From: an uncultured Actinomycetes bacterium
GTDB taxonomy: Bacteria; Actinomycetota; Acidimicrobiia; Acidimicrobiales; Microtrichaceae
DNA length: 64,000 bases
Assembly (NCBI GenBank): GCA_903852755.1
Contig: CAINRS010000057.1
Location: 505-64,504 of the forward strand
Reading direction: 5' to 3'
The translations under genes were made by a program, and so were the position numbers. Below the pieces are notes generated by a model that saw nothing but the letters and a program-made list of their open reading frames with translations, was not told where the DNA came from and did no database searches. This document shows positions 5,331-48,224 of the stretch, one piece after another (position 1 is the first letter of the stretch; each line of letters begins with the position of its first letter).

Positions 5331-5331
5331 C

Positions 5332-7080: not shown

Positions 7081-7092
7081 GCCGCCGAGGTT

Positions 7093-7110: not shown

Positions 7111-7139
7111 TCGTCACCACCGGACGCTAGGGTCGCCGT

Positions 7140-26609: not shown

Positions 26610-26630
26610 GGATGGGACTCTAGCGAGTGC

Positions 26631-27053: not shown

Positions 27054-27096
27054 CTGTGCTCCCCTGTCTCCGGATCCGGTCTGGACGCCCATGCTA

Positions 27097-27123: not shown

Positions 27124-27192
27124 AGGCGGCCAGGTGGCGTCCGGGGAGGCGGTCAGGTGGCGTCCGGGGAGGCGGTCAGGTCGCATCCGAGA
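27124..27192. repeat. three tandem 23-bp units, each carrying a GTCAGG (or CCAGG) operator half-site; the last unit forms the SDR stop codon and final codons
   Basis: The units are AGGCGGCCAGGTGGCGTCCGGGG, AGGCGGTCAGGTGGCGTCCGGGG and AGGCGGTCAGGTCGCATCCGAGA. GTCAGGTCGCATCCGAG also occurs at 27109-27125, continuing from operator copy 6. Confidence 0.85.
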
Positions 27193-28090
27193 AGATCGAC
27201 GCCATGGCCACCATCTCCTCACCGGCGGCGGCAGGGACGATGAACGGGTCGGTGGCCCGGATCTCGTCGAGGTGGGCGACCACGTCCTCGGGGGTCGGGG
27301 CGACGCCCCGGCCGGCGATCCACCCCGGGCCCAGGCCCACGAACGCCCGGGCGATTCGCCCGCCGCCCACGCTGAAGACCTCGTGGGTGGGCTCACAGCC
27401 GGAGGACGCCAGGTACGCCACCAGGCCGGACACCTGCTCGGGAGCGAGCAGGCTCGCCATGGCCTCGCCCATGAGCTGCTCGGTGAGGCGGGTCGTGGCG
27501 AGCGGGGCGATGACGTTGCTCCGGATGTTGGACTTGGCTCCCTCGATGGCGATCACGCTCGACAGACCGACCAGGCCCATCTTGGCGCCGGCGTAGTTGG
27601 CCTGACCGAAGTTGCCGAACAACCCGGCGGCCGAGGTGGTGTGGACGAACCGCCCGTAGCCCTGCTCCTTCATGTGGGCGAACGCCGGACGGCTCACGTA
27701 GAACGCGCCCTTCAGGTGCACGTCGATGATGTCGTCGATGTTCTCGGTGGTCATCTTGGCGAAGGACTGGTCGCGCAGGAACCCGGCGTTGTTGACCACC
27801 ACGTCGACGGTGCCGAACGCCTCGAGGGCGGAGCGCACGATGGACTCCCCACCCTCGGCGGTGCTCACGCTGTCGTGGTTGGCCACCGCCTCGCCGCCGG
27901 CGTCGACGATCTCGTCGACCACGCGCTGGGCTGCCGAGGCGTCAGCACCCTCGCCGGCCGCCGTGCCACCCAGGTCGTTCACGACCACCCGTGCACCCCG
28001 CTCGGCGAGGAGGAGGGCGTGCGAACGCCCCAGCCCGCCTCCGGCGCCGGTCACGATCGCCACCTGTCCGTCGAACGTCACATCACTCAC
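27176..28090 (-). CDS. SDR-family 3-hydroxyacyl-CoA dehydrogenase (MFE-2 / Hsd4A N-terminal-domain-like)
   Basis: Motifs VAIVTGAGGGLGRSHALLLAERGARVVVNDLGG, VVNNAGFLRD and GQANYGAAKMGLVGL. Confidence 0.88.
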   Translation of the reverse strand: MSDVTFDGQVAIVTGAGGGLGRSHALLLAERGARVVVNDLGGTAAGEGADASAAQRVVDEIVDAGGEAVANHDSVSTAEGGESIVRSALEAFGTVDVVVNNAGFLRDQSFAKMTTENIDDIIDVHLKGAFYVSRPAFAHMKEQGYGRFVHTTSAAGLFGNFGQANYAGAKMGLVGLSSVIAIEGAKSNIRSNVIAPLATTRLTEQLMGEAMASLLAPEQVSGLVAYLASSGCEPTHEVFSVGGGRIARAFVGLGPGWIAGRGVAPTPEDVVAHLDEIRATDPFIVPAAAGEEMVAMASIFSDAT

Positions 28091-28119: not shown

Positions 28120-29133
28120 TCAGTCGAGCAGCAGTCCGGCGAGTTGGTCACGGTGCCAGTCCGCGTCGCCGAGCAGGTGGTCGCCGCCGTAGGCGCGGCG
28201 CAGGCGCAGGTGCAGGTCGTGCTCCCACGTGTAGCCGATGCCGCCGTGCGCCTGGAGCCCGGTGCGGGCCCAGTGACGGGCCGCACCACCAGCGGCCGCC
28301 TTGGCGACGTGAACCGCCGAGGACCGGTCGTCGTCGTCGGCGTCGACGCACATGGCGGCGTAGGCGACCGCCGCCGCGGCCCGCTCCTGGTGCAGCGAGG
28401 CGTCGACGAGCTTCCACTGCAGTCCCTGGAACGACCCGACCGGCTTGCCGAACTGCTCACGCTCGGCGACGTAGGCCAACGTGGACTCCTGGAGCCACCG
28501 GCCGACGCCCACGAGTTCGGCGGCGAGCCCCACGGTCGCCCGGTCGAGTGCGTCACGGACCGCTCCCGACTCGACCGGGACCGCCGTTCCGGCCGGTACC
28601 CGCACCCGCCACAACGGCCGGGTGCGGTCGAGGGCCTCGATGGGTGCGGAGTCCAGGCCGTCGGCGTCGACGACGAGCACCGACGGTCCCGAGCGGAGGA
28701 ACACCACCCGGTCCACCTGGTCGAGGTGCGGCACGAACCAGCACTCGTCGTGGTCGCCCGGCTCCCAGACGCCCGCTGCGTCAGCGACGGCGACCGTGGC
28801 ACTGAGCGTGCCCTCGGCCACTGCGTCGGCATCGGGGTGGCCGGCGGCGCGCAGCAGCGGGAGCGCCCAGGACGCCGTGACCCAGAGCGGGCCGGGGGCG
28901 AGCACCACACCGGACTCCTCGAGGAACAGGGCCAGGTCGACCAGCGGGCCGTCGCCGAGTGCCGACCACTCGCTCAGGTGGGTCGCGTGGAACGACCGGG
29001 CCGTGGCGGGGCCGTCCGGGGTCACGTCGTAGCAGGCATCACGGACCAGCGACGGTGGGCACTCCCTGGTGAACATCGACCGGGCGGTGTCACGCAGGAG
29101 CTCCTGCTCGTCGGAGAGCGCGAAGTCAACCAC
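28120..29133 (-). CDS. acyl-CoA dehydrogenase family protein, beta-type subunit (FadE27/FadE29-like)
   Basis: 337 aa, shorter than canonical ACADs. C-terminal GGIGYTWEHDLHLRLRRAYG. Start GTG 29133 overlaps the upstream ACAD by 8 nt (GTGGTTGA). Confidence 0.8.
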   Translation of the reverse strand: MVDFALSDEQELLRDTARSMFTRECPPSLVRDACYDVTPDGPATARSFHATHLSEWSALGDGPLVDLALFLEESGVVLAPGPLWVTASWALPLLRAAGHPDADAVAEGTLSATVAVADAAGVWEPGDHDECWFVPHLDQVDRVVFLRSGPSVLVVDADGLDSAPIEALDRTRPLWRVRVPAGTAVPVESGAVRDALDRATVGLAAELVGVGRWLQESTLAYVAEREQFGKPVGSFQGLQWKLVDASLHQERAAAAVAYAAMCVDADDDDRSSAVHVAKAAAGGAARHWARTGLQAHGGIGYTWEHDLHLRLRRAYGGDHLLGDADWHRDQLAGLLLD

Positions 29134-30295
29134 GGGGCAACCCCAGGACCCGGTTGGCGACGATGTTGCGCTGGACCTCCGACGTGCCCCCGCCGATCGT
29201 GGCAGCGAGCGACACCTGCCAGGCCGCCTGGAAGCGGCCGCCCTGCGCTGCGAGCTCCGGATCCGTCACCGTGGCGTAGGCGCCCTGCAGGTCCATCCCG
29301 AACTCGTTCAGGCGCTGCCGCAGCTCCGAGGCGGCGAGCTTCATGTAGGAGTGCTCCGGGGCCGACGAACCCTGGGCGAACGAGGCGAATCCCTTGTAGC
29401 CGAGGGCCCGGATCGACCGGACCTCCTCGTGCAGTTCACCGATCCGACGTCGGACGACCGGATCGGCGGCCAGTCCGCGGTCGCGAACCAGGGTGACCAG
29501 CCCGTCGAGCGCACGCTGGGCGTAGCCGACGCCCTCGAGCCACAACCCGCCGCGCTCGTGGGCGAGCGAGCCCATGGTGATGCGCCAGCCGTTGTCGAGT
29601 TCACCGACCAGGTTGGAGCGGGGCACGACGGCGTCGACCAGGAACACCTCGGCGAACTCGGCGTTGCCGGTGATGTGGCGCAGGGGCCGGACCTCGACGC
29701 CGGGGGTGTCCATGTCGAGGATCAACACCGAGATGCCCTTGTGCTTGGGGGCCGACGGGTCGGTGCGCACGTAGAGGAAGCACCGTTCGGCCCACTCGGC
29801 GTAGCTGGTCCAGACCTTCTGTCCGTTGACGACGAACGAGTCGCCGTCGAGCTCGGCCCGGGTCGACAGGCTGCCCAGGTCCGAGCCGGCATCCGGTTCG
29901 CTCATCCCGACGCACCAGACGGTGTCGCCACGGATGGCAGCCGGAGCGAGCGCCCGCTGCTCCTCGTTGCCGAACTCGAGCAGCGACGGGCCCACGATGC
30001 CGTACCCGCCGAAGTGCACCGAGCGGGGGACGCCCCGGGCGGCGAGTTCCTCCTGGTACACCAGGGTCTGCAGTGGGGTGGCGTTGCGACCGCCGAGCTC
30101 GGGCGGGTAGGCCGGGATCATCCACCCGGAGTCGAACAACAGGGCCTGCCAGTCCCGGGCCCAACCCGGGACCTCGTCGGCCTCCTCGCCGATCCAGTCC
30201 CGGCCGTCACGCAACTGCTCAGGGGTGTGCTCGTCCAGGAAGGCGGCGATCTCGGCGCGGAACGCCTCGGACTCCGGATCCCACGAGAGCCTCAC
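29126..30295 (-). CDS. acyl-CoA dehydrogenase, alpha-type subunit (FadE26/FadE28-like)
   Basis: 389 aa with CVGMSEPDAGSDLGSL, GQKVWTSYA and GGTSEVQRNIVANRVLGLPRG. Operator 30314-30331 lies 19 nt upstream. Confidence 0.88.
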   Translation of the reverse strand: MRLSWDPESEAFRAEIAAFLDEHTPEQLRDGRDWIGEEADEVPGWARDWQALLFDSGWMIPAYPPELGGRNATPLQTLVYQEELAARGVPRSVHFGGYGIVGPSLLEFGNEEQRALAPAAIRGDTVWCVGMSEPDAGSDLGSLSTRAELDGDSFVVNGQKVWTSYAEWAERCFLYVRTDPSAPKHKGISVLILDMDTPGVEVRPLRHITGNAEFAEVFLVDAVVPRSNLVGELDNGWRITMGSLAHERGGLWLEGVGYAQRALDGLVTLVRDRGLAADPVVRRRIGELHEEVRSIRALGYKGFASFAQGSSAPEHSYMKLAASELRQRLNEFGMDLQGAYATVTDPELAAQGGRFQAAWQVSLAATIGGGTSEVQRNIVANRVLGLPRG

Positions 30296-35067: not shown

Positions 35068-36444
35068 GTGGCTGAGCGGCTCGAGCCGACCTGGCCGCAC
35101 GCCCTGGGCCCGACCACCGGCCGCATCAGCGACCTCGAGCCGGACGACCCGCGCATCGCCCGGCTCGCCGGCGGGCTCGCCCGCTCGGGGGTCGGCCGCG
35201 GCGACCTGGTGGCGTGGCAGCTGCCCAACGGTGAGCCGGCCGCGCTGGCCCTGTGGGCGTGCTGGCGACTGGGGGCGGTCGCTGCGCCGATCCACCACCG
35301 CGCCACCGCCGCCGAGGTCGACCGGATGCTCGGCGCCCTGCCGGCGGCGACGGTGCTCGACGACGGGTGGATCGGTCGGCTCGTCGAGGAGTCGCCACCG
35401 CACCCGGGAGGGCCGGTGGCACCGGACGAGCCGGCGCTCGTCCTGCACACATCCGGGTCCTCCGGGACCCCCAAGGGCGTCGTGCACACGCACGCCGGCC
35501 TGGCGCACAAGGCCCGCTCGATGGTGCGCATCCACGGACTCCACGCCCGGGACGTCGTGCTGATGCCGGCACCGCTCGGACACGTGTCCGGGGTGCTGAA
35601 CGGGGTCCTCGTCCCTGCGGCGGCGCAGATGCGAGCGGTGCTGCTCCCACGGTGGGACCCGGACGAGGCGCTCGCGATCATCGAGGCCGAACGGGTCTCG
35701 TTCATGGTCGGCCCACCGACGTTCTTCACCGGTCTCCGCGACGCATCCGGGTGGGCGCCCGAGCGGGTCGCCTCGCTGCGGATCGTGTCCGCCGGCGGCG
35801 CCGGGGTGACGCCGGCGTTCTGCGAGCGGACCGCCGGGGAGTTCGGCGCCACCGTGAAGCGCAGCTACGGCTCGACCGAGGCGCCCACCGTGGCCACCAA
35901 CCACGCGACCGACGACGCCCGACTCGGCTGGCACACCGACGGCCGCGCCGTCGACGGCGTGTCGTTCCGGATCGGGGACGCGGGTGGACTCGAGGTGCAG
36001 GGACCGGAGCTGTTCGTGGGCTACACCGACGCGGCGCGCACGGCCGAGGCGATCACCGACGACGGCTGGTTCCGTACCGGCGACACCGCCGAACTGGGCG
36101 ACGACGGCCGGGTGACCATCACGGGTCGCCTGAGCGAGGTGATCATCCGCGGTGGCGAGAACATCTCGCCCGCCGAGGTCGAGGCCGTCCTCGAGGCCCA
36201 CCCCGGGGTCCGTGCCGCGGTGGCGGTGGGAGTGCCCGACGAACGGCTCGGTGAACGGACCGCGGCGGTGGTCGTCCCCGTGCCCGGAGCCACGCCGAAC
36301 CTCGAGGACCTGACGGCGTGGTGCGACACCCGGGGTCTCGCCCGCTACAAGTGGCCGGAACGACTCGAGGTCGTCGAGGCCCTGCCGGTGCTGCCCTCGG
36401 GCAAGGCCGACCGGGCCGCCCTGCGGGACCGGCTCACCCGCTAG
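35068..36444 (+). CDS. AMP-dependent acyl-CoA synthetase/ligase
   Basis: Motifs LHTSGSSGTPKGVVHTH, YGSTE, GWFRTGDTAELGDDGRVTITGR and PSGKADR. Confidence 0.9.
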   Translation: MAERLEPTWPHALGPTTGRISDLEPDDPRIARLAGGLARSGVGRGDLVAWQLPNGEPAALALWACWRLGAVAAPIHHRATAAEVDRMLGALPAATVLDDGWIGRLVEESPPHPGGPVAPDEPALVLHTSGSSGTPKGVVHTHAGLAHKARSMVRIHGLHARDVVLMPAPLGHVSGVLNGVLVPAAAQMRAVLLPRWDPDEALAIIEAERVSFMVGPPTFFTGLRDASGWAPERVASLRIVSAGGAGVTPAFCERTAGEFGATVKRSYGSTEAPTVATNHATDDARLGWHTDGRAVDGVSFRIGDAGGLEVQGPELFVGYTDAARTAEAITDDGWFRTGDTAELGDDGRVTITGRLSEVIIRGGENISPAEVEAVLEAHPGVRAAVAVGVPDERLGERTAAVVVPVPGATPNLEDLTAWCDTRGLARYKWPERLEVVEALPVLPSGKADRAALRDRLTR

Positions 36445-38108: not shown

Positions 38109-38113
38109 CGGGA

Positions 38114-38131
38114 ACTGACACTAACGTCAGG
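38114..38131. promoter_or_regulatory. dyad operator copy 9 (ACTGACACTAACGTCAGG) between divergent CoA-transferase and acyl-CoA ligase genes
   Basis: Occupies most of the 28-nt gap 38109-38136. The internal TAACGT (38122-38127) lies 10 nt before ATG 38137. Confidence 0.75.
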
Positions 38132-38136
38132 TCGCC

Positions 38137-39654
38137 ATGGCCGGGTACACCGAGAACTACCGCGACCTCACCGACCGGCCGGCGGTCCGACACGGACCGG
38201 TGACCCTGACCTACGGAGACCTGCACCGGCGGGCGTCCCGGCTGGCGTCGGTGCTCCGGTCGGACGGACTCTCCCCCGGTGGGCGGCTCGCCGTCATGCT
38301 GCCCAACCGGATCGAGTTCCTCGAGTGCCTCGCCGCCTCGGCCAAGGTCGAGTGCTCGGCCCTCTCGGTCAACTGGCACCTGGCCCCCGGTGAGCTCGCC
38401 TACGTGCTGGCCGACTCCGGCTCGGGTGCGCTCGTCGCCGACGCCGCCCTGCGCGACGTGGTCGAGGCGGCCGACCCGGCCTGCCCGGTGCTGTACGTGG
38501 ACGACCCGGGTGCACACGGCTACGAGGCGCGCCTCGCCGGGGGCGAGGACGACCTGCCCACCCCGTGGCCCTGCTCCTGGCCCGTCATCTACACCTCGGG
38601 CACCACCGGCCGACCCAAGGGGGTCGTCCACGGTGCACTCGCCGACCCCGAGGTCCTCCGCGCCACCCAGGAGGCACTCGTCGCGTTGTGGGGGTACACC
38701 CCGGACGACGTCCACCTGGTGGCCGGTCCCCTCTACCACGCCGGCCCACAGGGGTACGCCGCGCTCACCCTCTACTCGGGCGGCACCGTCGAGCTCACCG
38801 GCGGCTGGGACGCGCGTGAGTTCCTGCGGTTGGTGGAGGAGCGCCGGGTGACCACCACCTTCCTGACCCCGGCGCACTTCATCCGCCTGCTCGAGGTGCC
38901 CGTCGCCGAGCGGTCGCGGTTCGACGTCGGCTCCCTGCGCCACGTGATCCACGCCGGAGCGCCGTGTCCGGTCGGGGTCAAGCGCCAGATCCTGGAGTGG
39001 TGGGCGCACACCGAGGTCTGGGAGCTCTACGGCATGAGCGAGGGCGGCGCGACCCGCGTGTCGCCGACGGAGTGGCTCGAGCGCCCCGGGACGGTCGGAC
39101 GCCCGTGGCCGGGCACCGAGGTGCGCATCCTCGACCCGTCGACGCTCGAGCCGCTGCCCCCCTGCGAGGACGGCCTCATCTACGTCCGTCCGCCACGCGG
39201 CCGGTTCCACTACCACGATGATCCCGACAAGACCGACGACGCGTGGCACGGCGACGCCTTCACCGTCGGCGACGTCGGACACCTCGACGACGACGGCTGG
39301 CTCTACCTGACCGACCGAGCCGCGGACCTGGTCATCAAGGGCGGCGTGAACGTCTACCCGCGCACCGTCGAGGACGTCCTCCACGACCACCCCGACGTGG
39401 TCGACTGCGCCGTGTTCGGGGTGCCGCACGACCGTGACGGCGAGCACCTGCACGCCGTGGTCGAGCTCCGCGGCGAACGGGACGCCGAGGTGGTGGTCGC
39501 GGAACTCCAGGAGCTGTGCCGCGAGCGACTCGATGCGTGGTCGTGCCCGTCGAGCGTCGAGGTCGTCGACGAGCTCCCCCGCGACCCGAACGGCAAGGTC
39601 CTCAAGCGGCACCTGCGCGAGCCCCACTGGGCCGACACCGAGCGACGGATCTGA
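38137..39654 (+). CDS. AMP-dependent acyl-CoA synthetase/ligase
   Basis: Motifs IYTSGTTGRPKGVVH, YGMSEGG, FTVGDVGHLDDDGWLYLTDR and PNGKVLKR. ATG 38137 lies 6 nt after operator 38114-38131. Confidence 0.9.
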   Translation: MAGYTENYRDLTDRPAVRHGPVTLTYGDLHRRASRLASVLRSDGLSPGGRLAVMLPNRIEFLECLAASAKVECSALSVNWHLAPGELAYVLADSGSGALVADAALRDVVEAADPACPVLYVDDPGAHGYEARLAGGEDDLPTPWPCSWPVIYTSGTTGRPKGVVHGALADPEVLRATQEALVALWGYTPDDVHLVAGPLYHAGPQGYAALTLYSGGTVELTGGWDAREFLRLVEERRVTTTFLTPAHFIRLLEVPVAERSRFDVGSLRHVIHAGAPCPVGVKRQILEWWAHTEVWELYGMSEGGATRVSPTEWLERPGTVGRPWPGTEVRILDPSTLEPLPPCEDGLIYVRPPRGRFHYHDDPDKTDDAWHGDAFTVGDVGHLDDDGWLYLTDRAADLVIKGGVNVYPRTVEDVLHDHPDVVDCAVFGVPHDRDGEHLHAVVELRGERDAEVVVAELQELCRERLDAWSCPSSVEVVDELPRDPNGKVLKRHLREPHWADTERRI

Positions 39655-39659
39655 CGGCC

Positions 39660-40097
39660 GTGACCGATCCCGCCCCGCCCCTGAGCGACGGACTGTTCCG
39701 CGCCGGACCCGGAGCCGCCGACGACGGGACCATCACCCTGGTCGGTGGACGGTCGGCCAGTGGCGGCCGTCTGCACTTCCCCCGCTCCCCGGTGTGCCCG
39801 TGGACCGGCGCCGACGACGTCGAGGACGCCGACCTGCCCCGGACCGGGCGACTGTGGGCGTGGACCACCGTGACCGCCGCTCCGCCGGGGTACTCCGGCC
39901 CCGTGCCCTACGGCTTCGGGGTGGTCGAGTTCGACGACGCAGACGGGGTGCTCCGGGTGGTCGGCCGGCTCACCGTCGCCGACGCAGCCGCACTCCGGTT
40001 CGGCGAGCCGATGGTGGTCGTTGCCGTGGAGCTCCCGACCGAGCGCGGACCGGTCACCACCTGGGCGTTCGCCCCCGACGGAACGGACCGTCCGTGA
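39660..40097 (+). CDS. DUF35 OB-fold protein with a degenerate zinc ribbon
   Basis: Start at GTG 39660. OB-fold part: GRLWAWTTVT...YGFGVVEFDDADGVLRVVGRL. The ribbon region reads GGRLHFPRSPVCPWTG, with only one Cys. Confidence 0.7.
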   Translation: MTDPAPPLSDGLFRAGPGAADDGTITLVGGRSASGGRLHFPRSPVCPWTGADDVEDADLPRTGRLWAWTTVTAAPPGYSGPVPYGFGVVEFDDADGVLRVVGRLTVADAAALRFGEPMVVVAVELPTERGPVTTWAFAPDGTDRP

Positions 40098-41230
40098 CCG
40101 CCGTTGCCGTCGCCGGCGTCGGGATCCACCCGTTCGGCCGCCACGGCGAGCTGACCGCCACCGCCATGGGGGCCGCGGCGCTGCGCGACGCCATGGCCGA
40201 GGCGTCGGTGGGTCGGGGTGGGTTCCAGGCCGCGTTCTGCGCGACGGCCTACGGCGGGGTCGCCGCAGGGCACCGGGTGCTGGGCGCGCTCGGGCTGACC
40301 GGGGTCCCGATCGTCGACGTCGAGGCCGGGTGCGCCTCGGGTGGTGCGGCGTTGGCGCTCGCCGCCGGGGCGATCCGGGCAGGGCAGTACGACACGGTGC
40401 TGGTGGTGGGGATCGAGAAGATGCCCAAGGGCGTCATCCGGTCGTCGTTCTTCCCGCAGTGGATGGAGGAGGGCGGCCTCGCCGCCACGCCGGCGTACTT
40501 CGCGCTGCGGGCGCAGCGGCTGCTGCGCGAGCAGGACGTCACGGTCGACGACCTGGCTGCGGTGGTGGTGAAGAACCGCGCCCACGGAGTCCACAACCCC
40601 GACGCCATGTTCACCTCGGCCGTGACCGCGGAGCAGGTCCTCGGCTCCCGCGTCGTGAGCCCTCCGCTGCACCTGTGGATGCTGTGCTCCCCCAACGAGG
40701 GTGCCGCCGCCGTGGTGCTCCGCCGGGCGGACCTGGCGGGCCCCGGCGCCGTGCGGTTGGACGCAGCTGCGCTGCGCAGCCACCTGCCCGGATCGGTCCT
40801 GGACGAGTCCACCCCGCTGTCGGGTGTCGAGGACCAGAGGATCACCCCGCCGACGCAGTTGGCTGCCACCGACGCCTACGAGGCGGCCGGACTCGGACCC
40901 GGAGACGTCGACGTGGTCGAGTGCCAGGACACCGACGCCGCCCGGGAGCTCATCAGCTGGGTCGAACTGGGTCTGTGCCCACCGGGCGGACAGTCGGCCG
41001 TGCTCGCATCGGGTGGGGCGTCGATCGGCGGGACGCTGCCGATCAACCCCTCGGGGGGACTGTTGTCCAAGGGTGAGCCGCTCGGCGCATCGGCGCTCGG
41101 ACAGGTCGTCGAACTCGTCCGCCAGCTCCGGGGACAGGCCGGCGCCCGCCAGGTCGACGGCGCCAGGGTCGGCCTGGCGCACACGATCGGCCGGGGCGCG
41201 AACGCCTCGGTGGCGCTGCTCACCACGTGA
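40094..41230 (+). CDS. thiolase (SCP-x/Ltp type, catalytic Cys present)
   Basis: Start at GTG 40094 forms a GTGA overlap with the DUF35 stop. Sequence: VAVAGVGIHPFGRH, VEAGCASGGAALALAAGAI, NPSGGLLSKGEPLGASALGQ. Confidence 0.88.
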   Translation: MTAVAVAGVGIHPFGRHGELTATAMGAAALRDAMAEASVGRGGFQAAFCATAYGGVAAGHRVLGALGLTGVPIVDVEAGCASGGAALALAAGAIRAGQYDTVLVVGIEKMPKGVIRSSFFPQWMEEGGLAATPAYFALRAQRLLREQDVTVDDLAAVVVKNRAHGVHNPDAMFTSAVTAEQVLGSRVVSPPLHLWMLCSPNEGAAAVVLRRADLAGPGAVRLDAAALRSHLPGSVLDESTPLSGVEDQRITPPTQLAATDAYEAAGLGPGDVDVVECQDTDAARELISWVELGLCPPGGQSAVLASGGASIGGTLPINPSGGLLSKGEPLGASALGQVVELVRQLRGQAGARQVDGARVGLAHTIGRGANASVALLTT

Positions 41231-41255
41231 ACCGGCGGGGCCACCGGCTGGGGTG

Positions 41256-41273
41256 ACTGACACGGGCGTCAGG
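41256..41273. promoter_or_regulatory. dyad operator copy 10 (ACTGACACGGGCGTCAGG) upstream of the HMGCS-like/DUF35 fusion operon
   Basis: Followed by TACTGT (41274-41279) and GTG 41287, the same geometry as copy 3. Confidence 0.75.
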
Positions 41274-41286
41274 TACTGTGTCGCCC

Positions 41287-42744
41287 GTGGTGCGTGCACG
41301 AGCCCTCGACGTGTCGATCGCCGCCGTCGGCGTGGCGGCCCCCGAGTGGCGGGTCCCCGTCGCATCGATCGACGCGGCCTGGGGTCGCTCCCCCGGCCGC
41401 GGAACCCTCGCCGTGTGCAGATCCGACGAGGATCCACTCACCCTCGCGTGGGCCGCTGCGGACCGGGCGGTCGCCGCCGCCGGAGTCGCACCATCCGGCA
41501 TCGACGGGATGTGGTGGGGCTGCACCCGGCCGCCCTTCGCCGAGGGGCCGAGCTGGTCGACGCTCGCCGCGACCCTGCACCTCGCGCCCGAGGCCGACGG
41601 CGCGCTCCTGTCGGGGTCCACCCACGCCGGTCTCGACGCCCTGCTCGCTGCGGCCGACGCCGTGGCGGCCGGTCGCGTCGACACCGCGCTCGTGGTCACC
41701 TCGGACGCGCTCCTGCCGGCGACCGGCACCGGCCACGAGACCTCGGCCGGGGCCGGCGCCGCTGCGTTGCTGCTCCGGCGCGACGGCGGCCCAGCCCGGC
41801 TGGTGCACACCGCCCACCGCTGGGAACCCCGGCTCGACCGCTACCGGGGCGACCGCGAGCCCGAGACACGGGAGACCTACGACGGCCGCCTGTTCCGGGA
41901 GCAGGCCTACCTGCCCATGCTCGGCGCCGTGGGCGACGCCCTGCTCGTCGACGCGACGGACGCCGGGCGCTGGTCGCTCCCCGACCCGGACGGTCGGCTC
42001 GCCCGGGCACTCGCCAAGCGCTTGCGGGCCGGCACGACCTCGGCCCAGGACGTCGCGGCAGCCGACCGCACCCGACTCGGTGACCTCGGCAGCGCCGCGA
42101 CGCTCGTCGGCGCCGCCGCAGCACTCGGCAGCCCCGGTCCGCTGCACCTGCTCGGCGTGGGCGGTGGTCGGGCGACGGGGTGCACCGTGATCGTCGACGC
42201 CCCGGTGCCGGGGGCCGAGCGGGTCACTGCGGACCTGTCCGGCGGCGAGGAGGTCGCCTACACCCGGGTGCTCCGGTCCCGCGGGGTGCTGCGCCCCACC
42301 GGCGAGTCGGTCGAGATGGCCGTGCCGCCCGGGAGCGCCATGTTCGGACGGGGCGCCGGCGAGATGCTGGGACTGCTCGCCGCCCGCTGCGTCGACTGCG
42401 GGACGATGAACACTCCGCCCGACGTGCACCCCACCTGCATCTCGTGCGGGTCCACGAAGTTCGACGTGGTGCCGCTCGGCCGGACCGGCACGGTGCAGAC
42501 GTTCGTGGTCAACCGCACCATGCCGTCACCGTTCGAGGCTCCCCTGCCGCTCGTGGTCGTGGACCTCGACGACGGCGGGCGGATCCAGCTCCAGGGCGGC
42601 GACGACGGTGCCGAGCTGTCCATCGGCGCCCCGGTCGACCTGGTGCTGCGCAGGTACGCCGTGGAGCGCGGGGTGCCGGTCTACGGCTGGAAGGTCCTGA
42701 CCCGCCGGCCGGTGGCCGGGACCGACGAGGAGGTCACGTCGTGA
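41287..42744 (+). CDS. HMG-CoA synthase / KAS III-fold domain fused to a C-terminal DUF35 module (catalytic residues apparently missing)
   Basis: N domain: ASIDAAWGRSPGRG..., GCTRPPFAEGP, SGSTHAGLDALLAA, HETSAGAGAAALLL. C domain: Zn-ribbon RCVDCGTMNTPPDVHPTCISCGS plus an OB fold (GTVQTFVVNR...LVVVDLDDGGRIQLQG). GTG 41287 lies 8 nt after the TACTGT -10 box. GTG 41278 or 41290 are alternatives. Confidence 0.75.
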   Translation: MVRARALDVSIAAVGVAAPEWRVPVASIDAAWGRSPGRGTLAVCRSDEDPLTLAWAAADRAVAAAGVAPSGIDGMWWGCTRPPFAEGPSWSTLAATLHLAPEADGALLSGSTHAGLDALLAAADAVAAGRVDTALVVTSDALLPATGTGHETSAGAGAAALLLRRDGGPARLVHTAHRWEPRLDRYRGDREPETRETYDGRLFREQAYLPMLGAVGDALLVDATDAGRWSLPDPDGRLARALAKRLRAGTTSAQDVAAADRTRLGDLGSAATLVGAAAALGSPGPLHLLGVGGGRATGCTVIVDAPVPGAERVTADLSGGEEVAYTRVLRSRGVLRPTGESVEMAVPPGSAMFGRGAGEMLGLLAARCVDCGTMNTPPDVHPTCISCGSTKFDVVPLGRTGTVQTFVVNRTMPSPFEAPLPLVVVDLDDGGRIQLQGGDDGAELSIGAPVDLVLRRYAVERGVPVYGWKVLTRRPVAGTDEEVTS

Positions 42745-43919
42745 GCTGGAACCGGGTGGCCGTGGTCGGCGCCGGCCTCATCCACATGGGCGAACTGTTC
42801 GACCAGTCCTACGAGCAGATGGCGCGGGGCGCGTTCGACGCCGCGGTCGACTCGGTCGACCACGGGTTCGACCCGACGGCGATCGACGCCGTGTTCGTCG
42901 CCACCCAGCGGGGGACGCTGTGGGGCCAGGAGGGCATCGGCGGCAACACCATCCCGTCGGCCATCGGCCTCGCCGGGGTCGCCTGCACCCGGGTCGAGAA
43001 CGCGTGTCCGACCGGGTCCGACGCCTTCCGGGTGGGATGCATGGCCGTCGCCTCGGGCGTCCACGACGTCGTGCTCGTGATCGGGGTCGAGAAGATGCGC
43101 GACAAGTCCTCCGACGAGGGCCTGCTCGCGCGGGCGGCCGCCGGGCACCCCGTCTACACCAGGGGTGAGTCGGCACCGGTGCTGTTCGCCCCGTTCGCGA
43201 CCCGGCACATGCACGAGTTCGGCACGACCCGCGAGATGCTGGCCTCGGTGGCGGTCAAGAACCACCACAACGGCGTGCTCGACCCGTACGCGCACTTCCG
43301 CAACGAGGTCACCATCGAGCAGGTCCTCGCCGCGCCGCCGGTGTGCTCACCACTGCACCTGCTCGACTGCTGCCCGCAGACCGACGGCGCGGCGGCGATC
43401 ATCATCACCGCTCCCGAACGGGCGGCGGACTTCACCGACCGGCCCGTGTTCGTGGCGGGCTTCGGCGTGGCCACCGACCACCCGTACCTGCACGAGAAGT
43501 CGACCTACGTCGGACTCCCGGCGACGGTCGAGGCGTCCCGCCGGGCCTACGAGATGGCAGGCATCTCACCGGCCGACGTCGACGTCGCCGAGGTCCACGA
43601 CTGCTTCACGATCACCGAGATCCTGGACATCGAGGACCTGGGGTTCGTCGAGAAGGGCCGGGGCGGGGTGGCGTCGCTCGAGGGTGAGACGGTGCTCGAC
43701 GGGAGGATCCCGGTCAACCCGTCCGGCGGCCTGCTCGCCAAGGGGCACCCGATCGGCGCCACCGGGATCGCCCAGCTCACCGAGTGCTGGTGGCAGCTCC
43801 GGGGCCAGGCCGACGAACGACAGGTGGCGATCCGCAACGGGTTCGCACTGCAGCACAACGTGGGGGGACGCGGGTCCGGCGTCTCGGTGGTGAACATCCT
43901 CACCACCAACGCGTCGTGA
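42741..43919 (+). CDS. thiolase (SCP-x/Ltp type, catalytic Cys present)
   Basis: Start at GTG 42741 forms a GTGA overlap. Sequence: RVAVVGAGLIHMGE, VENACPTGSDAF, NPSGGLLAKGHPIGATGIAQ, QHNVGG. Confidence 0.88.
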   Translation: MSWNRVAVVGAGLIHMGELFDQSYEQMARGAFDAAVDSVDHGFDPTAIDAVFVATQRGTLWGQEGIGGNTIPSAIGLAGVACTRVENACPTGSDAFRVGCMAVASGVHDVVLVIGVEKMRDKSSDEGLLARAAAGHPVYTRGESAPVLFAPFATRHMHEFGTTREMLASVAVKNHHNGVLDPYAHFRNEVTIEQVLAAPPVCSPLHLLDCCPQTDGAAAIIITAPERAADFTDRPVFVAGFGVATDHPYLHEKSTYVGLPATVEASRRAYEMAGISPADVDVAEVHDCFTITEILDIEDLGFVEKGRGGVASLEGETVLDGRIPVNPSGGLLAKGHPIGATGIAQLTECWWQLRGQADERQVAIRNGFALQHNVGGRGSGVSVVNILTTNAS

Positions 43920-44713
43920 TCCGCTTCGACGTCGGCGACGACCACGTCGGCCGCATCACCCTGGACCGGCCCGACGCCGCCAACGCCCTCACGGTCGAGA
44001 TGCGCGACGAGATCGTCGAGCGGGTGCGCGAGTGCCGGGAGCGTGACGATGTCCGCGCCGTGCTGCTGACGGCCACCGGCGAGTCGTTCTGCTCGGGCAT
44101 GGACCTGCGGGGCTCCACCGTTGCGAAGGCGGGAACCGAGGACTTCGACCCCCGCTCCACCTCGCAGGCGCTCCGGGTCGGCGTGCAGACGTTCATCCGG
44201 GAGCTGTGGGAACTCGACAAGCCGACCGTGGCCGCCGTGCAGGGCGCGGCCGTCGGACCCGGGGCGCACCTGGCCCTGGCGTGCGACTTCGTGCTGACCT
44301 GCGACCGCACCACCTTCATGTGGAGCTTCGCCCGGTGGGGGCTCGTCGTCGACGCGGGCGGTGCGTACCTGCTCCCCCGGCTGGTCGGTCTGCCGCGTGC
44401 CAAGGCGATGGTCATGCTCGGCGAGCGGGTGTCCGGCACCGAGGCGGTCGACCTGGGACTCGCCTACCGCCACGTCGGGATGGCCGACACCATGGCGACG
44501 ACCGCCGACGAGCTCGCCGTGCAACTCGCCGCCGGTCCGACCCGCTCGCTGGGCCTGTCCAAGGCACTGCTCAACCGGTCGTTCGAGACCTCACTCCCCG
44601 ACAGCCTGGAGCTCGAGGGTCACTTCCAGTCGCTCGCCACCGCGTCGGCCGACCTGGTCGAGGGCATGGCGGCGTTCCGGGAGAAGCGACCGCCCGACTT
44701 CACCGGCCACTGA
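43916..44713 (+). CDS. enoyl-CoA hydratase/isomerase
   Basis: Start at GTG 43916 forms a GTGA overlap. Sequence: GRITLDRPDAANAL, TGESFCSGMDL, VQGAAVGPGAHLALACDFVL, AFREKRPPDF. Confidence 0.88.
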   Translation: MIRFDVGDDHVGRITLDRPDAANALTVEMRDEIVERVRECRERDDVRAVLLTATGESFCSGMDLRGSTVAKAGTEDFDPRSTSQALRVGVQTFIRELWELDKPTVAAVQGAAVGPGAHLALACDFVLTCDRTTFMWSFARWGLVVDAGGAYLLPRLVGLPRAKAMVMLGERVSGTEAVDLGLAYRHVGMADTMATTADELAVQLAAGPTRSLGLSKALLNRSFETSLPDSLELEGHFQSLATASADLVEGMAAFREKRPPDFTGH

Positions 44714-44774
44714 CCGGTGCCGTGGCGCACCGCCGCCGAGGTGGCGGCACCACCGCTGTGACACCATCGTCGGA

Positions 44775-46811
44775 GTGAGCGGGACCGACCACCACCGTCC
44801 CGACGTCCAGGGCCTCCGGGCCGTGGCAGTGCTCGCTGTGGTGGCATTCCACGTCGGCGACAGTCCGATCGCCCGCAACCGGGGCGTGGGCGGGGTCGAA
44901 CTGCTCCCCGGCGGGTTCACCGGAGTCGACGTCTTCTTCGTCATCTCCGGGTTCGTGATCACGGCGCTCCTGCTGCGCCGTGCCGACCGGGACGGGGGTG
45001 TGGCCCTGCGGGACTTCGCCGCTCGCCGGGTCCGACGGATCCTGCCGGCGCTCGCTCTGATGTCGGTGGTCGTGCTGGCGCTCGGCATCGTCGTCCTCGA
45101 CCCGTTCGGGGCGCAGCAGTTCGCAGCCCGGACATCGATGGCCGCGGCCCTGCTCGGTGCCAACGTCTACCTGTACCGCCACACCGGCTACTTCGACTCA
45201 TCGGCGGCCGCCAACCCGTTCCTGCACACCTGGTCGCTGTCGGTCGAGGAGCAGACGTACCTGCTCCTGCCACTCGGCGTCGCACTCGCCGCCGCGGTCG
45301 CGCTCCGACGGCGTCGGTCGACGGCGTGGTGCGTCGGAGCGGGTGCAGTCGCCGTCGCCGCGACCTCGTTCGCGCTCGCGGTCGCGCTCAGCGCCGGTTG
45401 GGGAACATCGGTGGTCCAGGCGCCGGAGCGCCTGTCCTTCCTGGCCGCACCGACCCGGTGGTGGGAGTTCGCGGCGGGAGCGCTGGTGGCTGCGTGGGCG
45501 TCGCACCCGCGGCAGCTCCCCCGTCGGGTCGCCGCAGTGCTCGGGATCGCCGGGCTGGTGGCCATCGTCGGCGGTGCCCTCCGACTGGGACCCGGAACAC
45601 CCTGGCCCTCGCTGTGGACACTCGTGCCGGTACTGGGAACGGTCGGCGTCCTGGTGGCCGGGGCGACGACCAACCCCGCCGGTCAGCTCCTGTCGAGTCG
45701 ACCCCTCGGGTGGATCGGCGACCGCTCGTACGCCTGGTACCTGTGGCACTGGCCCTGCATCGTGCTCGCCGCCGCCATCTGGCCCAGCCTGGCGTGGATC
45801 CCCGCCGTTGCCGCCGTCGCGTCGCTGCTGCCGGCGGCCGCGTCGTACCGCTGGGTGGAGCAACCGCTTCGACACGACTCCTCGATCGTCGGACGGCGGG
45901 CGGCGCTCCTGGGAGCCGTGTGCACCGGGGCGGTCCTGCTCGTCGGGCTGATCGTGCTCACCGGGGCCGACCGGGGCTGGGGACTGCGCGAGGAGGACGG
46001 CTGGTACGACCGACCCGAGGGACGCAACGTCGGATGCCTCCAGCTCAACCGGGATCTGCGCGCCGACTGGCCCGAGACCGCATGCACGTCTCCCCCGCCT
46101 CCCGGAGGCGCCGGTACGGTGCTGGTGCTCGGTGATGCGCAGGCGAGCGGCGTCACCCCGGCCGTGATCGATGCAGCGGCGTCGCTCGGGCTCGGGACCA
46201 CCGAGTGGAACCGCGCAGGATGCCCGTTCCTGGCGCGGGCACCGCTCGACGCACCGGGATGCGGCGACTGGCAGGTGCAGGCGTGGTCACTGGTCGAACG
46301 GCTGCGCCCAGCGGCCGTGGTGCTCGCCGCCGACGAGTCCGCCTACACGGGTGTCGCCGGCTCCGGGGAGTTGCTGGGTGACGCGGACGGGAACGCACCG
46401 GCGACGGATGCAGACGCAGCCGCCAACTGGGCTGGGGCGCTGGCAGCGACGCTCGACAGGCTCGACGCACTCGGCATCCCCGCAGTCGTGGTCGGCGGTG
46501 CACCGGATCTCGGCCCGACGTTCCCTCGGGACGTGCAGTCGCTGCTCCGACCCCATCCACCTGTCCCACAGGTCGACCTCACAGCAGCGCAACGGCGTCG
46601 CAGCAGCGTGTGGGAGCAGCAGGAGCAGACGGTCCGGGATCACCCGACGGCGACGCTGGTCGACCCGCTGCCGGTGCTGTGCGACCCCGTGTGCCGGGGG
46701 GTCGTCGACGGCGTGTGGCGATTCCACGAGCGCAATGAACTCACCAACGCCGGGAGCCGACTGCTGACGGACGAACTCCGGACGGCACTCGGCCGACTGA
46801 CCGGCCGCTGA
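44775..46811 (+). CDS. membrane acyltransferase family 3 (OafA/YrhL type) with a C-terminal SGNH-like domain
   Basis: GLRAVAVLAVVAFH, VDVFFVISGFVIT, HTWSLSVEEQTYL, followed by about 10 TM segments. The extracytoplasmic tail contains VLVLGDAQASG. Start GTG 44775 is tentative. Confidence 0.8.
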   Translation: MSGTDHHRPDVQGLRAVAVLAVVAFHVGDSPIARNRGVGGVELLPGGFTGVDVFFVISGFVITALLLRRADRDGGVALRDFAARRVRRILPALALMSVVVLALGIVVLDPFGAQQFAARTSMAAALLGANVYLYRHTGYFDSSAAANPFLHTWSLSVEEQTYLLLPLGVALAAAVALRRRRSTAWCVGAGAVAVAATSFALAVALSAGWGTSVVQAPERLSFLAAPTRWWEFAAGALVAAWASHPRQLPRRVAAVLGIAGLVAIVGGALRLGPGTPWPSLWTLVPVLGTVGVLVAGATTNPAGQLLSSRPLGWIGDRSYAWYLWHWPCIVLAAAIWPSLAWIPAVAAVASLLPAAASYRWVEQPLRHDSSIVGRRAALLGAVCTGAVLLVGLIVLTGADRGWGLREEDGWYDRPEGRNVGCLQLNRDLRADWPETACTSPPPPGGAGTVLVLGDAQASGVTPAVIDAAASLGLGTTEWNRAGCPFLARAPLDAPGCGDWQVQAWSLVERLRPAAVVLAADESAYTGVAGSGELLGDADGNAPATDADAAANWAGALAATLDRLDALGIPAVVVGGAPDLGPTFPRDVQSLLRPHPPVPQVDLTAAQRRRSSVWEQQEQTVRDHPTATLVDPLPVLCDPVCRGVVDGVWRFHERNELTNAGSRLLTDELRTALGRLTGR

Positions 46812-46812
46812 G

Positions 46813-47004
46813 TCACCCCTCGATCGTCAGGGCGTCCTCCGGGCAGGACGCCACCGCCAGACGGGCCGCCGCCTCCAACTCGGCCGGCGGTTCGGTGAGC
46901 AGCACCACGCAGTGTCCCAGGTCGTCGGCATCGAACACCTGCGGGGCCAGGGCGTAGCACCGTCCGTGACCGACGCAGGCCTGCTCGTCGAACACGATCC
47001 GCAT
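46813..47004 (-). CDS. small single-cluster ferredoxin (3Fe-4S type, P450 redox partner)
   Basis: Start at ATG 47004 shares one nucleotide with the P450 stop (TGATG). Sequence: MRIVFDEQACVGHGRCYALAP...ASCPEDALTIEG. Confidence 0.85.
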   Translation of the reverse strand: MRIVFDEQACVGHGRCYALAPQVFDADDLGHCVVLLTEPPAELEAAARLAVASCPEDALTIEG

Positions 47005-48224
47005 CACTCCACCGCCTCGGCGACCACCGGGTCGAACACGAGTGGGAGCGACACGATCTCCCGGATTCCCGGTGAGTACTCCAGGTGCGCCCCCTCGGCG
47101 ACGGTGTAGTCGGGGATCCGGCGGTGCCACTCCTCGAGTGCGACACGGAGTTCGAGGCGCGCGAGGTGCGAGCCGAGACAGCGGTGCGGACCACCCCCGA
47201 ACGCCAGGTGCCGGTTGACCTCACGGGTGGCATCGAACTCCGAGGCGTCCTCGCCGAACTCGGACGGATCGGTGTCCGCGGAGCCGAGCATCAACATGAC
47301 GGTGTCACCGACCTCGAACTGGTGCCCGTGCAACTCGACCGGCTGGGCCACCGCCCGCAGGATCTGCATGACCGGGGTGTGGAAGCGGAGCATCTCCTCC
47401 ACGGCCGCCGGCACGATGGACGGGTCGTCCGCGATGAGCGCCCGCTGCACCGGGTCCTGGGCCAGGTGGGCCAGCGAGCAGTCCAGGGTCGAGGTCACCG
47501 TGTCCAGTCCGCCGAGGATGAACAGGTAGCAGATGTCGAGCATCTCCTCCTTGGACATCGTGCGGCCGTCGACCTCGGAGGTGAGGAACCGGGTGAGCAG
47601 ATCGGTGCCGGTGCCGCCGCGCCGCTGCTCGATGGCGTCCTCGAAGTACGCGTACAGCGCCGCTCCGGTGGCCCGCCGGACCCTGGCGTCCTCCTCGGGA
47701 TCACCCGTGTTGGGCCGGATGATGTTGTCCTTGAACTCGAGGAGTTGCTGGAGGTGCTCGAGAGGGAGGCCGCACATGCTCAGGAAGACGATGCACGGGA
47801 GCGGCACGGTGAACTCGGCGTGGGCGTCCACGGTGCCCCGGCCCACGAAGCCATCGAGGATCTCGTTGACGACCGACCGGAGCTCGTCCTCGAGCGGGGC
47901 CACCTCGTGCGGGCCGATGGTCGGATCGATCACCCGGCGGTACTTCGCGTGCTCGGGCGGGTCGATCTGCAGCGGGATGAGCGGCCGGTCCTGGCCGATG
48001 TCGACGGCAACGAAGTCCGAGCTGAAGATCTCCGGGTGCTTGAGGGCCCAGCGGACGTCCTCGTACCGGCTGATGATCCAGGTCCCCCGTCCGAAGCCCT
48101 CGAACATCGCCACCGGCAGGTGGTCCCGCAGCCGCTCGTAGAACGGGATCGGGTTGGCTGCGACCTCGGGCAGGTACGGGTTCGCCTCGCCCGTGTCCGG
48201 GTTGACGGCGGCTCCGGGATCCAT
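47004..48224 (-). CDS. cytochrome P450 monooxygenase
   Basis: 406 aa. I-helix LFILGGLDTVTS, EEMLRF (ExxR), heme loop FGGGPHRCLGSHLA. RBS GGGGAGG lies 6 nt upstream of the ATG. Confidence 0.93.
   Translation of the reverse strand: MDPGAAVNPDTGEANPYLPEVAANPIPFYERLRDHLPVAMFEGFGRGTWIISRYEDVRWALKHPEIFSSDFVAVDIGQDRPLIPLQIDPPEHAKYRRVIDPTIGPHEVAPLEDELRSVVNEILDGFVGRGTVDAHAEFTVPLPCIVFLSMCGLPLEHLQQLLEFKDNIIRPNTGDPEEDARVRRATGAALYAYFEDAIEQRRGGTGTDLLTRFLTSEVDGRTMSKEEMLDICYLFILGGLDTVTSTLDCSLAHLAQDPVQRALIADDPSIVPAAVEEMLRFHTPVMQILRAVAQPVELHGHQFEVGDTVMLMLGSADTDPSEFGEDASEFDATREVNRHLAFGGGPHRCLGSHLARLELRVALEEWHRRIPDYTVAEGAHLEYSPGIREIVSLPLVFDPVVAEAVE

Follow-up and report, generated by a model that had tools for sequence, protein, structure and literature searches.

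What does a condensing-enzyme domain do once it has lost the residues needed for condensation? The question is raised by a gene in a 64,000-nucleotide stretch of DNA from an uncultured Actinomycetes bacterium (GenBank assembly GCA_903852755.1, contig CAINRS010000057.1, positions 505 to 64,504 of the forward strand; the whole stretch is referred to below as the window). The gene encodes a domain with the hydroxymethylglutaryl-CoA (HMG-CoA) synthase (HMGS) fold fused to a DUF35 module, and is followed directly by genes for a thiolase and a crotonase. Our analysis suggests the fusion is a non-catalytic subunit that probably assembles with the downstream thiolase, the complex thiolysing the 3-oxoacyl-CoA supplied by the acyl-CoA dehydrogenase (ACAD), crotonase and short-chain dehydrogenase/reductase (SDR) of the same gene module. 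Six observations stand beneath this reading: the fold of the fusion, the loss of the HMGS catalytic tetrad, the intact active-site residues of the thiolase, translational coupling of the two genes, synteny and purifying selection.

An HMG-CoA synthase fold joined to DUF35

The N-terminal part of the protein matches the archaeal HMGS model PRK04262 of NCBIfam with an E-value of 2.5e-25 and 89 bits (equivalog cutoff 244) and, as a single sequence, chain 6esq_I of the archaeal thiolase/HMGS/DUF35 complex with an E-value of 2e-12. A family profile built from 22 sequences extends the match to 6esq_I to an E-value of 2.7e-23, and the same profile finds a PhlA homologue (9skh_A, 2.1e-24), PhlA itself (5m3k_A, 1.9e-21) and MucA (9vbo_A, 3.3e-15). 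Scanning this part against Pfam gave nothing above threshold, the one match, ACP_syn_III, being sub-threshold (E 0.008). An AlphaFold2 model of the whole fusion, calculated from a 92-sequence alignment, has a mean predicted local distance difference test score (pLDDT) of 93.7 and a predicted template modelling score (pTM) of 0.93; the top match of this model in a Foldseek search of the PDB is again 6esq_I (E 8.7e-23, target-normalised template modelling score 0.85, rmsd 2.7 Å), followed by PhlA homologues, MvaS and MucA.

The C-terminal part is a DUF35 module, with a rubredoxin-like zinc ribbon ahead of an OB fold. OB_ChsH2_C is matched above its Pfam cutoff (E 2.5e-9, 37.4 bits, cutoff 27.1) and zf-ChsH2 below it (E 0.0035, 17.6 bits, cutoff 23.2), and in the PDB the single sequence finds the DUF35 domain of ChsH2 (6ok1_B, E 7.9e-9) and the archaeal DUF35 protein (6esq_E, E 5.8e-7), the latter rising to E 8.8e-15 with the family profile. 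The zinc-ribbon cysteines C371, C374, C387 and C390 (codons 42388–42447) are invariant in 92 family members, and account for four of only 11 invariant columns in an alignment that reaches down to 25% identity. An earlier note on this DNA had proposed that an HMGS-type fold and a complete DUF35 module share one open reading frame (ORF), and had suggested hidden Markov model searches for both; these recover the HMGS-like fold (PRK04262, below cutoff) and DUF35 (OB_ChsH2_C, above cutoff), and the single-chain model carries the two as one protein.

Loss of the catalytic tetrad

The tetrad of archaeal HMGS comprises E82, C114, H238 and N270 (PMC12960953). Profile alignment to 6esq_I shows that all four are replaced in the window protein: E82 by T83 (codon 41524), where GSESHPY has become GCTRPPF; C114 by T115 (codon 41620), ACKAG having become STHAG; H238 by P235 (codon 41980), in a change from FHQPNG to LPDPDG; and N270 by D269 (codon 42082), with GDL in place of GNT. 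Residue numbers here and throughout are those of the 488-amino-acid (aa) version of the fusion. The earlier note had aligned the first two positions by eye, matching the glutamate to Thr83 and the cysteine to Thr115; HMMER reproduces that alignment, and the histidine and asparagine of the tetrad prove to be missing too.

In a set of 22 close relatives, T, P, S or A occupies the nucleophile site and T, S, A or G the glutamate site. A search of 1.84 billion representative proteins gave 536 matches at E ≤ 1e-10, and the tetrad was surveyed in an aligned set of 106 full-length fusions (440–520 aa, 27–56% identity). A cysteine at the nucleophile site is absent from all 106, as is the combination E-C-H-N. 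Across the family the cysteine position is held by T, P, S, A, L or V, and because the residues at the tetrad positions vary in this way, no new nucleophile has become fixed. Loss of the tetrad is a trait of the whole fused family and not a local accident. Many other residues of the domain are invariant in the close family, namely those of the segment WW-G-x-x-R-P-P-F-A-E-G-P (with W79, W80 and R84), H116, DRYRG (D187-R188-Y189-R190) and DPDGR (D236-P237-D238-G239-R240). Dozens of JGI/IMG records and some NCBI records label members of this family 'hydroxymethylglutaryl-CoA synthase'. The label is misleading, the tetrad being absent in all full-length members examined; HMG-CoA synthesis is beyond these proteins, and inferences about the mevalonate pathway drawn from the label would be wrong.

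A coupled thiolase with an intact active site

The gene that follows encodes a thiolase of the SCP2/archaeal type (thiolB), whose closest solved relative is 6esq_A, the thiolase chain of the archaeal complex (E 1.9e-78); it also matches Pfam Thiolase_C_1 (E 4.5e-43) and falls just short of NCBIfam PRK06064 (417.6 bits, cutoff 420). Matches to PhlC (E 2.6e-31) and to the Ltp2 structure 6ok1_A (E 7e-32) are much weaker. Aligned to 6esq_A, the thiolase keeps C89 (ENACPTGS, EAACASGS in 6esq_A), H286 (EVHDCF, identical in the two) and H336 (KGHPIG), and the C/HDCF/GHP motifs are identical wherever covered in 81 loci. The earlier note had pointed to the cysteine and GHP motifs, and the whole Cys/His/His apparatus is found to be retained.

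The three genes are closely coupled. The stop codon of the fusion overlaps the GTG start of the thiolase in the GTGA at 42741–42744, within ACGTCGTGAGC, and the stop of the thiolase overlaps the start of the crotonase likewise in a GTGA at 43916–43919, both overlaps being read in the sequence as the earlier note had given them. The crotonase finds its best NCBIfam match, below cutoff, in the PaaG isomerase model. With this, every element listed in the earlier observation has been located in the DNA.

Distribution, synteny and selection

The fusion is widespread. Its homologues, about 470 aa long, number at least 885, all fused among the matches listed. A scan of one genome per species returned 209 loci with relatives, nearly all in metagenome-assembled genomes (MAGs) of Acidimicrobiia and other Actinomycetota, together with one in Mycobacterium nebraskense (L051), a cultured host of the pair; the closest loci, from lake MAGs, are 79–82% identical. 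Going by the named members of their clusters, more remote fused relatives occur in Desulfotomaculales, Chloroflexota, Bacillota, Clostridia and Rokubacteria. A plasmid search gave three matches, two of them full-length homologues on haloarchaeal megaplasmids (30–31% identity). The survey of the fusion's distribution that the earlier note called for thus extends over Actinomycetota, Chloroflexota, Bacillota, Rokubacteria and haloarchaea.

The neighbourhood of one of the haloarchaeal homologues was read. On plasmid pHrrPV6 of Halorubrum sp. PV6 (L084, NZ_CP030065.1 38625–52046, genes 4820–7425) a canonical thiolase (ENAC, HDCF, GHP) overlaps a fused dead HMGS–DUF35 protein with T-T-Q-D at the tetrad positions, whose annotation says no more than 'zinc ribbon domain-containing protein'. 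Here the thiolase gene comes before the fusion, the opposite of the order in the window. The neighbours form a phenylacetate-type cluster of paaK, paaI, a MaoC/PaaZ-C protein, an aldehyde dehydrogenase (ALDH), a 3-hydroxyacyl-CoA dehydrogenase and an enoyl-CoA hydratase, so that this pair too lies in a catabolic CoA-ester context.

Window proteins were mapped onto 80 of the 209 loci. All 69 loci with room for it have a thiolase orthologue (75–97% identical) as the very next gene downstream of the fusion, a crotonase follows the thiolase in 56 of 64, and an SDR is found downstream in 34 of 51; an orthologue of the ACAD large subunit is present downstream in 21 of 51, a lower bound limited by the length of the flanks. 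On the long contigs L085 and L086 the genes form one string of fusion, thiolase, crotonase, SDR, ACAD (392 aa) and an ACAD C-terminal-type subunit (334 aa). The window holds the same six genes as two blocks 11 kb apart (Table 1): its SDR is 52% and 43% identical to those following the trio in L085 and L086, and its ACAD large and small subunits are 64–66% and 48% identical, respectively, to the genes that come after the SDR there. The six genes together are predicted to encode one complete β-oxidation cycle.

Table 1 Positions of the fusion gene, its domains and the associated features in the window
Feature	Position	Strand	Description
Fused pseudo-HMGS–DUF35 gene	41278..42744	+	ORF with GTG start and TGA stop, 488 aa
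HMG-CoA-synthase-fold domain	41311..42285	+	Residues ~12–336; PRK04262, 6esq_I, Foldseek
Interdomain linker	42286..42342	+	Internal model stretch of lowest confidence, pLDDT 62–75 at model residues ~331–350
DUF35 module	42343..42702	+	Four-Cys zinc ribbon, then OB fold; OB_ChsH2_C, zf-ChsH2, 6ok1_B, 6esq_E
SCP2/archaeal-type thiolase (thiolB)	42741..43919	+	392 aa; predicted catalytic subunit; 6esq_A, E 1.9e-78
Crotonase-family enoyl-CoA hydratase/isomerase	43916..44713	+	265 aa; ECH_1, E 1.6e-49
SDR	27176..28090	-	Candidate 3-hydroxyacyl-CoA dehydrogenase; Pfam adh_short; homologue in relatives directly after crotonase
Two-subunit ACAD	28120..30295	-	Small subunit 28120–29133, large subunit 29126–30295; Pfam Acyl-CoA_dh domains
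Intergenic palindrome CACGGGCGTCA-N7-TGTCGCCCGTG	41261..41289	.	Inside a motif kept in the two closest relatives

The island around these blocks contains two acyl-CoA ligases, a fused CoA-transferase, other ACADs, MaoC hydratases, an ALDH and a cytochrome P450 with its ferredoxin. Together with the β-oxidation string of the relatives, this gene set bears out the catabolic context the earlier note had assigned to the operon. An NCBIfam scan of 15 neighbouring proteins gave sub-cutoff matches throughout (PaaG-like crotonase, PimC-like ACAD, StyD-like ALDH and FadD-like ligases), the best match of the ACAD large subunit being pimC_large. No polyketide synthase (PKS) or non-ribosomal peptide synthetase (NRPS) gene was found within ±10 kb, where the gene calls with Pfam show only β-oxidation-type, P450 and housekeeping genes.

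Ratios of nonsynonymous to synonymous substitution (dN/dS) were estimated by the Nei–Gojobori method against the two closest loci (L004 and L005), the more distant L010 and L035 being excluded as saturated and unreliable. With dS imprecise at 72% G+C, the value of the window throughout to a close approximation (~72%), the HMGS-like domain has a dN/dS of 0.16–0.21 and the DUF35 domain one of 0.13–0.14, compared with 0.10 in the crotonase and 0.04 in the thiolase. Purifying selection maintains the dead domain, which is 3–5 times less constrained than the thiolase, and a constraint that is weaker and yet real fits a structural or binding role.

Relation to characterised complexes

The three parts of the window system have as their closest known relatives the three subunits of the archaeal complex, 6esq_I, 6esq_E and 6esq_A, by sequence and for the fusion also by Foldseek, so the parallel drawn in the earlier note with an archaeal channelling complex is well founded. 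The genes are adjacent and the thiolase residues are kept. In the archaeal assembly a CoA site common to thiolase and HMGS couples an unfavourable condensation to the favourable reaction of HMGS (PMC12960953, PMC6392133). Unlike the window protein, its HMGS is active, with E82, C114, H238 and N270 all present, and its DUF35 is a separate protein of 130 aa; the complex is anabolic, serving the mevalonate pathway by channelling acetoacetyl-CoA to an exergonic second condensation that is impossible for the window pair.

A closer likeness comes from a study published in Nature Communications in January 2026, in which 1,030 bacterial HMGS/ACAT/DUF35 loci were mined, 1,001 of them without biosynthetic neighbours, and one, from Pseudomonas fluorescens, was characterised (PMC12960953). 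The purified PfACAT/HMGS-DUF35 complex consists of a fused HMGS-DUF35 without E-C-H-N and an ACAT with Cys/HDxF/GHx; it made neither HMG-CoA nor acetoacetyl-CoA and cleaved acetoacetyl-CoA thiolytically to acetyl-CoA, an activity nearly abolished by the H294Y mutation of the HDxF histidine (PMC12960953). It shares with the window pair the fusion, the lost tetrad, the adjacent thiolase with Cys/HDxF/GHx and the lack of PKS or NRPS neighbours, and differs in its host, Pseudomonas against an Actinomycetota MAG lineage, and in that the window pair is co-translated with, and embedded in, a conserved β-oxidation module. Its authors viewed the complex as an 'evolutionary intermediate' and gave it no pathway, the words 'catabol…' and 'degradation' being absent from the paper (PMC12960953). 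The earlier note had not recognised such a complex as characterised. That view does not hold, as the same architecture has since been published, and dead HMGS-like subunits were known before that in PhlA and MucA. The architecture and its thiolytic activity are thus already known from the P. fluorescens complex (PMC12960953); what is added here is the loss of the nucleophile in all 106 full-length representatives aligned, the broad phylogeny, the purifying selection and the conserved β-oxidation context.

PhlA and MucA belong to the acyltransferases PhlACB (PpATase, 5M3K/5MG5) and MucABC (SmaATase, 9VBO/9VBT), in which an HMGS-like subunit lacking the cysteine and glutamate is a required, non-catalytic partner. 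In PhlACB the substrate is touched only by residues of PhlC, a continuous cavity passes through PhlA, PhlB and PhlC, and all three must be co-expressed (PMC6392133). MucABC behaves like PhlACB, and its thiolase-like subunit MucB is insoluble or inactive alone (PMC12960953). PhlA shares with the window protein the change of the tetrad asparagine to aspartate in a GD(T/L)G motif. The differences are that DUF35 is a separate chain in both complexes, that PhlC and MucB have lost the HDxF histidine (PMC12960953) and carry out Friedel–Crafts C-acylation, and that the genes lie in PKS or NRPS-PKS clusters.

Two degradative systems are similar in part. The benzoylsuccinyl-CoA thiolase BbsAB (7PXP), whose subunits BbsA and BbsB are weak matches of the two window proteins, is of the SCP2 type, depends on a DUF35 partner and employs HDxF, and differs from the window pair in having no HMGS-like component and a free DUF35 subunit of 145 aa. 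In the steroid side-chain systems Ltp2–ChsH2 (6OK1) and Sal–Shy a fused DUF35 domain tethers a thiolase-fold enzyme in a catabolic CoA-ester pathway; in those systems DUF35 is fused to a MaoC hydratase, and the thiolase-fold enzyme is a retro-aldolase without the cysteine.

A probable non-catalytic partner for thiolysis

The explanation we favour, and consider likely, is the following. The HMGS-fold domain, incapable of Claisen chemistry, is permanently tethered to DUF35, and dimers of the fusion and of the thiolase would build a hetero-oligomer like those of archaeal thiolase/HMGS/DUF35, PhlACB and MucABC, with DUF35 as the clamp between two thiolase-fold dimers. The dead HMGS dimer may act as a chaperone, keeping the thiolase soluble and correctly shaped, and may also line a shared substrate chamber at the interface. 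The sole chemistry would then be that of Cys89, His286 and His336 of the thiolase, the CoA-dependent thiolytic cleavage of 3-oxoacyl-CoA; the 'retro-Claisen' activity named in the earlier note is simply thiolysis. The complex would catalyse the final step of a β-oxidation cycle of its own, the other steps being carried out by the ACAD pair, the co-translated crotonase and the SDR, within what could be a large island for the catabolism of lipids or alicyclic acids in a freshwater actinobacterium.

That the proteins form a complex is inferred from three homologous assemblies of solved structure, in which lone subunits are insoluble or inactive. The Pseudomonas assay, together with the catabolic nature of the genes, suggests the thiolytic direction, and synteny suggests the part played in β-oxidation. 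The conserved and complete β-oxidation module argues for a working catabolic thiolase over the 'evolutionary intermediate' proposed for the Pseudomonas complex. The 'pseudoenzyme-scaffolded thiolase' of the earlier note is supported: the dead domain fused to DUF35 and coupled to an intact thiolase is present as described, and the scaffolding itself would be expected by analogy.

Several points weigh against this explanation. The dead domain could do more than scaffold, given how many of its residues are invariant in the close family. The association of the window protein with its thiolase is carried over from homologous complexes, and the likeness to the P. fluorescens protein was judged by its published description, not by sequence alignment. 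No substrate is assigned because no neighbouring enzyme reaches its NCBIfam equivalog cutoff, and with two other DUF35/thiolase-like pairs in the island, cross-pairing of subunits may occur. The imprecision of dS noted above adds to these.

Of the rival explanations, a new catalytic or ligand-binding role for the HMGS-like domain survives best. The domain might take on a hydrolase or lyase step, or hold a bulky acyl or carboxylate group, and the charged and aromatic residues invariant in the close family would suit such a role, as would the basic residue (H, R or K) found next after the former nucleophile site in the majority of listed representatives, the real constraint expressed in a dN/dS of 0.16–0.21, and the precedent of a PhlACB cavity spanning all three of its subunits (PMC6392133). 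Set against these are the variable tetrad positions (T/P/S/A/L/V at the cysteine site), at which no new nucleophile is fixed, the inheritance of the DED, D-x-W/Y-R and G-D/N-x-G motifs from active HMGS or PhlA, and the fact that no activity maps to the HMGS-like subunit in three characterised complexes. We consider a new role of this kind unlikely.

The direction of catalysis could also be the reverse. In a reverse-β-oxidation or CoA-dependent, fatty acid synthase-like assembly, a ketoreductase and a dehydratase would be brought in by the dead HMGS–DUF35, much as DUF35 in the archaeal fatty acid synthase complex of Sulfolobus acidocaldarius mediates the assembly of ketothiolase, reductase and MaoC dehydratase by which Claisen condensation is driven (bioRxiv 10.1101/2024.07.05.601840). 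Thiolases are reversible, and SDRs and MaoC-type hydratases are present in the island. Condensation would lack the exergonic HMGS step to pull it, however, and the P. fluorescens complex did not condense acetyl-CoA and did thiolyse acetoacetyl-CoA (PMC12960953). The conserved module likewise contains two-subunit ACADs of the FAD type and a crotonase and no enoyl-CoA reductase, and the ligases, CoA-transferase, ALDH and P450 form a catabolic signature. Taken together these make a condensing role quite improbable.

A PhlACB/MucABC-type C-acyltransferase of secondary metabolism, carrying out Friedel–Crafts chemistry in a CoA-independent or acetyl-CoA-dependent manner on a small-molecule acceptor, would account for PhlA homologues (9skh_A, E 2.1e-24) scoring no lower with the family profile than archaeal HMGS does, for the Asn-to-Asp change and GD(T/L)G motif common to PhlA, and for the nearby P450 gene. 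Yet the HDCF motif is kept in the window thiolase and in all covered relatives, whereas PhlC and MucB lack the HDxF histidine; the thiolase matches that of 6ESQ (E 1.9e-78) far better than it does PhlC (E 2.6e-31); the 10 kb on either side hold neither PKS nor NRPS genes; and in PhlACB and MucABC DUF35 is a separate subunit. With HDxF retained and no PKS present, we rejected this assignment and regard it as very improbable.

Equally hard to credit is a lyase that works by retro-aldol cleavage, as Ltp2–ChsH2(DUF35) and Sal–Shy do on steroid side chains, rejected on the retained nucleophile of the thiolase (Cys89): the DUF35 domain does match that of ChsH2 (6ok1_B, E 7.9e-9), and the island has parts reminiscent of a steroid pathway (MaoC hydratases, ACADs of two subunits and further proteins resembling Ltp), but the 42741 thiolase keeps Cys, HDxF and GHP, unlike its Ltp2-like neighbour thiolC, which is without the cysteine and both histidines, it matches the Ltp2 structure weakly (6ok1_A, E 7e-32, against 1.9e-78 for 6esq_A), and DUF35 in the steroid systems is fused to the MaoC hydratase Shy, not to an HMGS fold. 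An active HMG-CoA synthase was rejected outright, as the tetrad is absent and the PRK04262 score (89 bits) is far below the cutoff of 244.

Returning to the fusion as a non-catalytic partner in thiolysis, a broader possibility can be put forward more tentatively. Proteins of this kind may be ancient and widespread specificity and scaffold subunits that make an archaeal-type thiolase the terminal enzyme for bulky or unusual acyl-CoAs (alicyclic, aromatic-derived or dicarboxylic), the old HMGS cavity forming part of the chamber, in a family spanning Actinomycetota, Chloroflexota, Bacillota, Rokubacteria and haloarchaea. If so, the subunit would set which substrates the abundant Acidimicrobiia of freshwater and soil can degrade. 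On the favoured explanation itself, the fusion is a clear example from nature of a catalytic domain that has died and yet persists as the indispensable companion of its former pathway neighbour, a relic of the mevalonate-pathway complex of archaea put to new use in the catabolism of bacteria. The conserved six-gene context offers a testable role for an architecture that has in vitro thiolysis and no published physiological role, and the M. nebraskense locus places the pair in a cultured organism.

Start of the fusion gene and its upstream region

In-frame alternatives to the start codon in Table 1 are the GTG at 41287, chosen in the earlier note, and the GTG at 41311 used in public gene calls, which yields a 477-aa product 100% identical to a protein (P0001) found on 12 metagenome contigs. 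The start is unsettled because residues encoded 5' of 41311 are kept in the closest homologue (P0002, 82% identical); the main results on the protein are independent of which start is used.

The candidate start codons are overlapped by an intergenic motif, CTGACACGGGCGTCAGGTACTGTG (41255–41289), kept in the two closest relatives (L004 and L005) and containing the inverted repeats CTGAC/GTCAG and CACGGGCGTCA/TGTCGCCCGTG. The palindrome of the latter pair may be an operator or an mRNA hairpin. The earlier note had called the operon operator-controlled. A conserved palindrome is seen, and the claim is neither confirmed nor refuted, with no regulator gene among the gene calls within ~10 kb of the operon and no recurrence of the palindrome above chance elsewhere in the window. 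A promoter and terminator scan of 36300–45200 returned nothing, a scan of this sort being uninformative for an actinobacterial genome of 72% GC.

Other genes of the island

Two further DUF35/thiolase-like pairs occur in the island. Just upstream of the fusion and on the same strand lie a DUF35 gene (~39660–40097) and thiolA (40094–41230, +), whose product keeps the cysteine (EAGCASGG) and has glutamine in place of the HDxF histidine (ECQDTD) and glutamate in place of the GHP histidine (SKGEPLG). The same C/Q/E combination is found in 15 orthologues, and thiolA is thus a fixed non-canonical thiolase-fold protein. The third pair, on the reverse strand, consists of the thiolase-like thiolC (30332–31573) and a DUF35 protein (31570–32037); thiolC has an insertion, no cysteine at the nucleophile site, tyrosine for the HDxF histidine (ELYDGF) and arginine for that of GHP, and looks like a retro-aldolase of the Ltp2/Sal type. 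In all, the island holds three DUF35-partnered thiolase-fold proteins, each with different active-site residues.

Divergent between two acyl-CoA ligase genes is a 555-aa CoA-transferase (36441–38108, −) made of two CoA_trans halves, corresponding to fused A and B subunits, and this arrangement is kept in L004, L005, L010, L013 and L035. Downstream of the operon, a cytochrome P450 of 406 aa and a small ferredoxin (46813–48224, −) might provide the initial oxidation of the substrate; the P450 is syntenic in the closer relatives L004, L005, L009, L010, L013 and L014 (69–94% identity). A 502-aa ALDH, with the phenylacetaldehyde dehydrogenase StyD as its best sub-cutoff match, stands beside a 153-aa MaoC dehydratase (25101–27092, −), a pairing also seen in the Halorubrum plasmid cluster. 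Further away, a 568-aa ORF (20319–22025, −) has a TLP1-type thiolase-like C-terminal domain (PF18313) and adds another member of the thiolase superfamily to the island.

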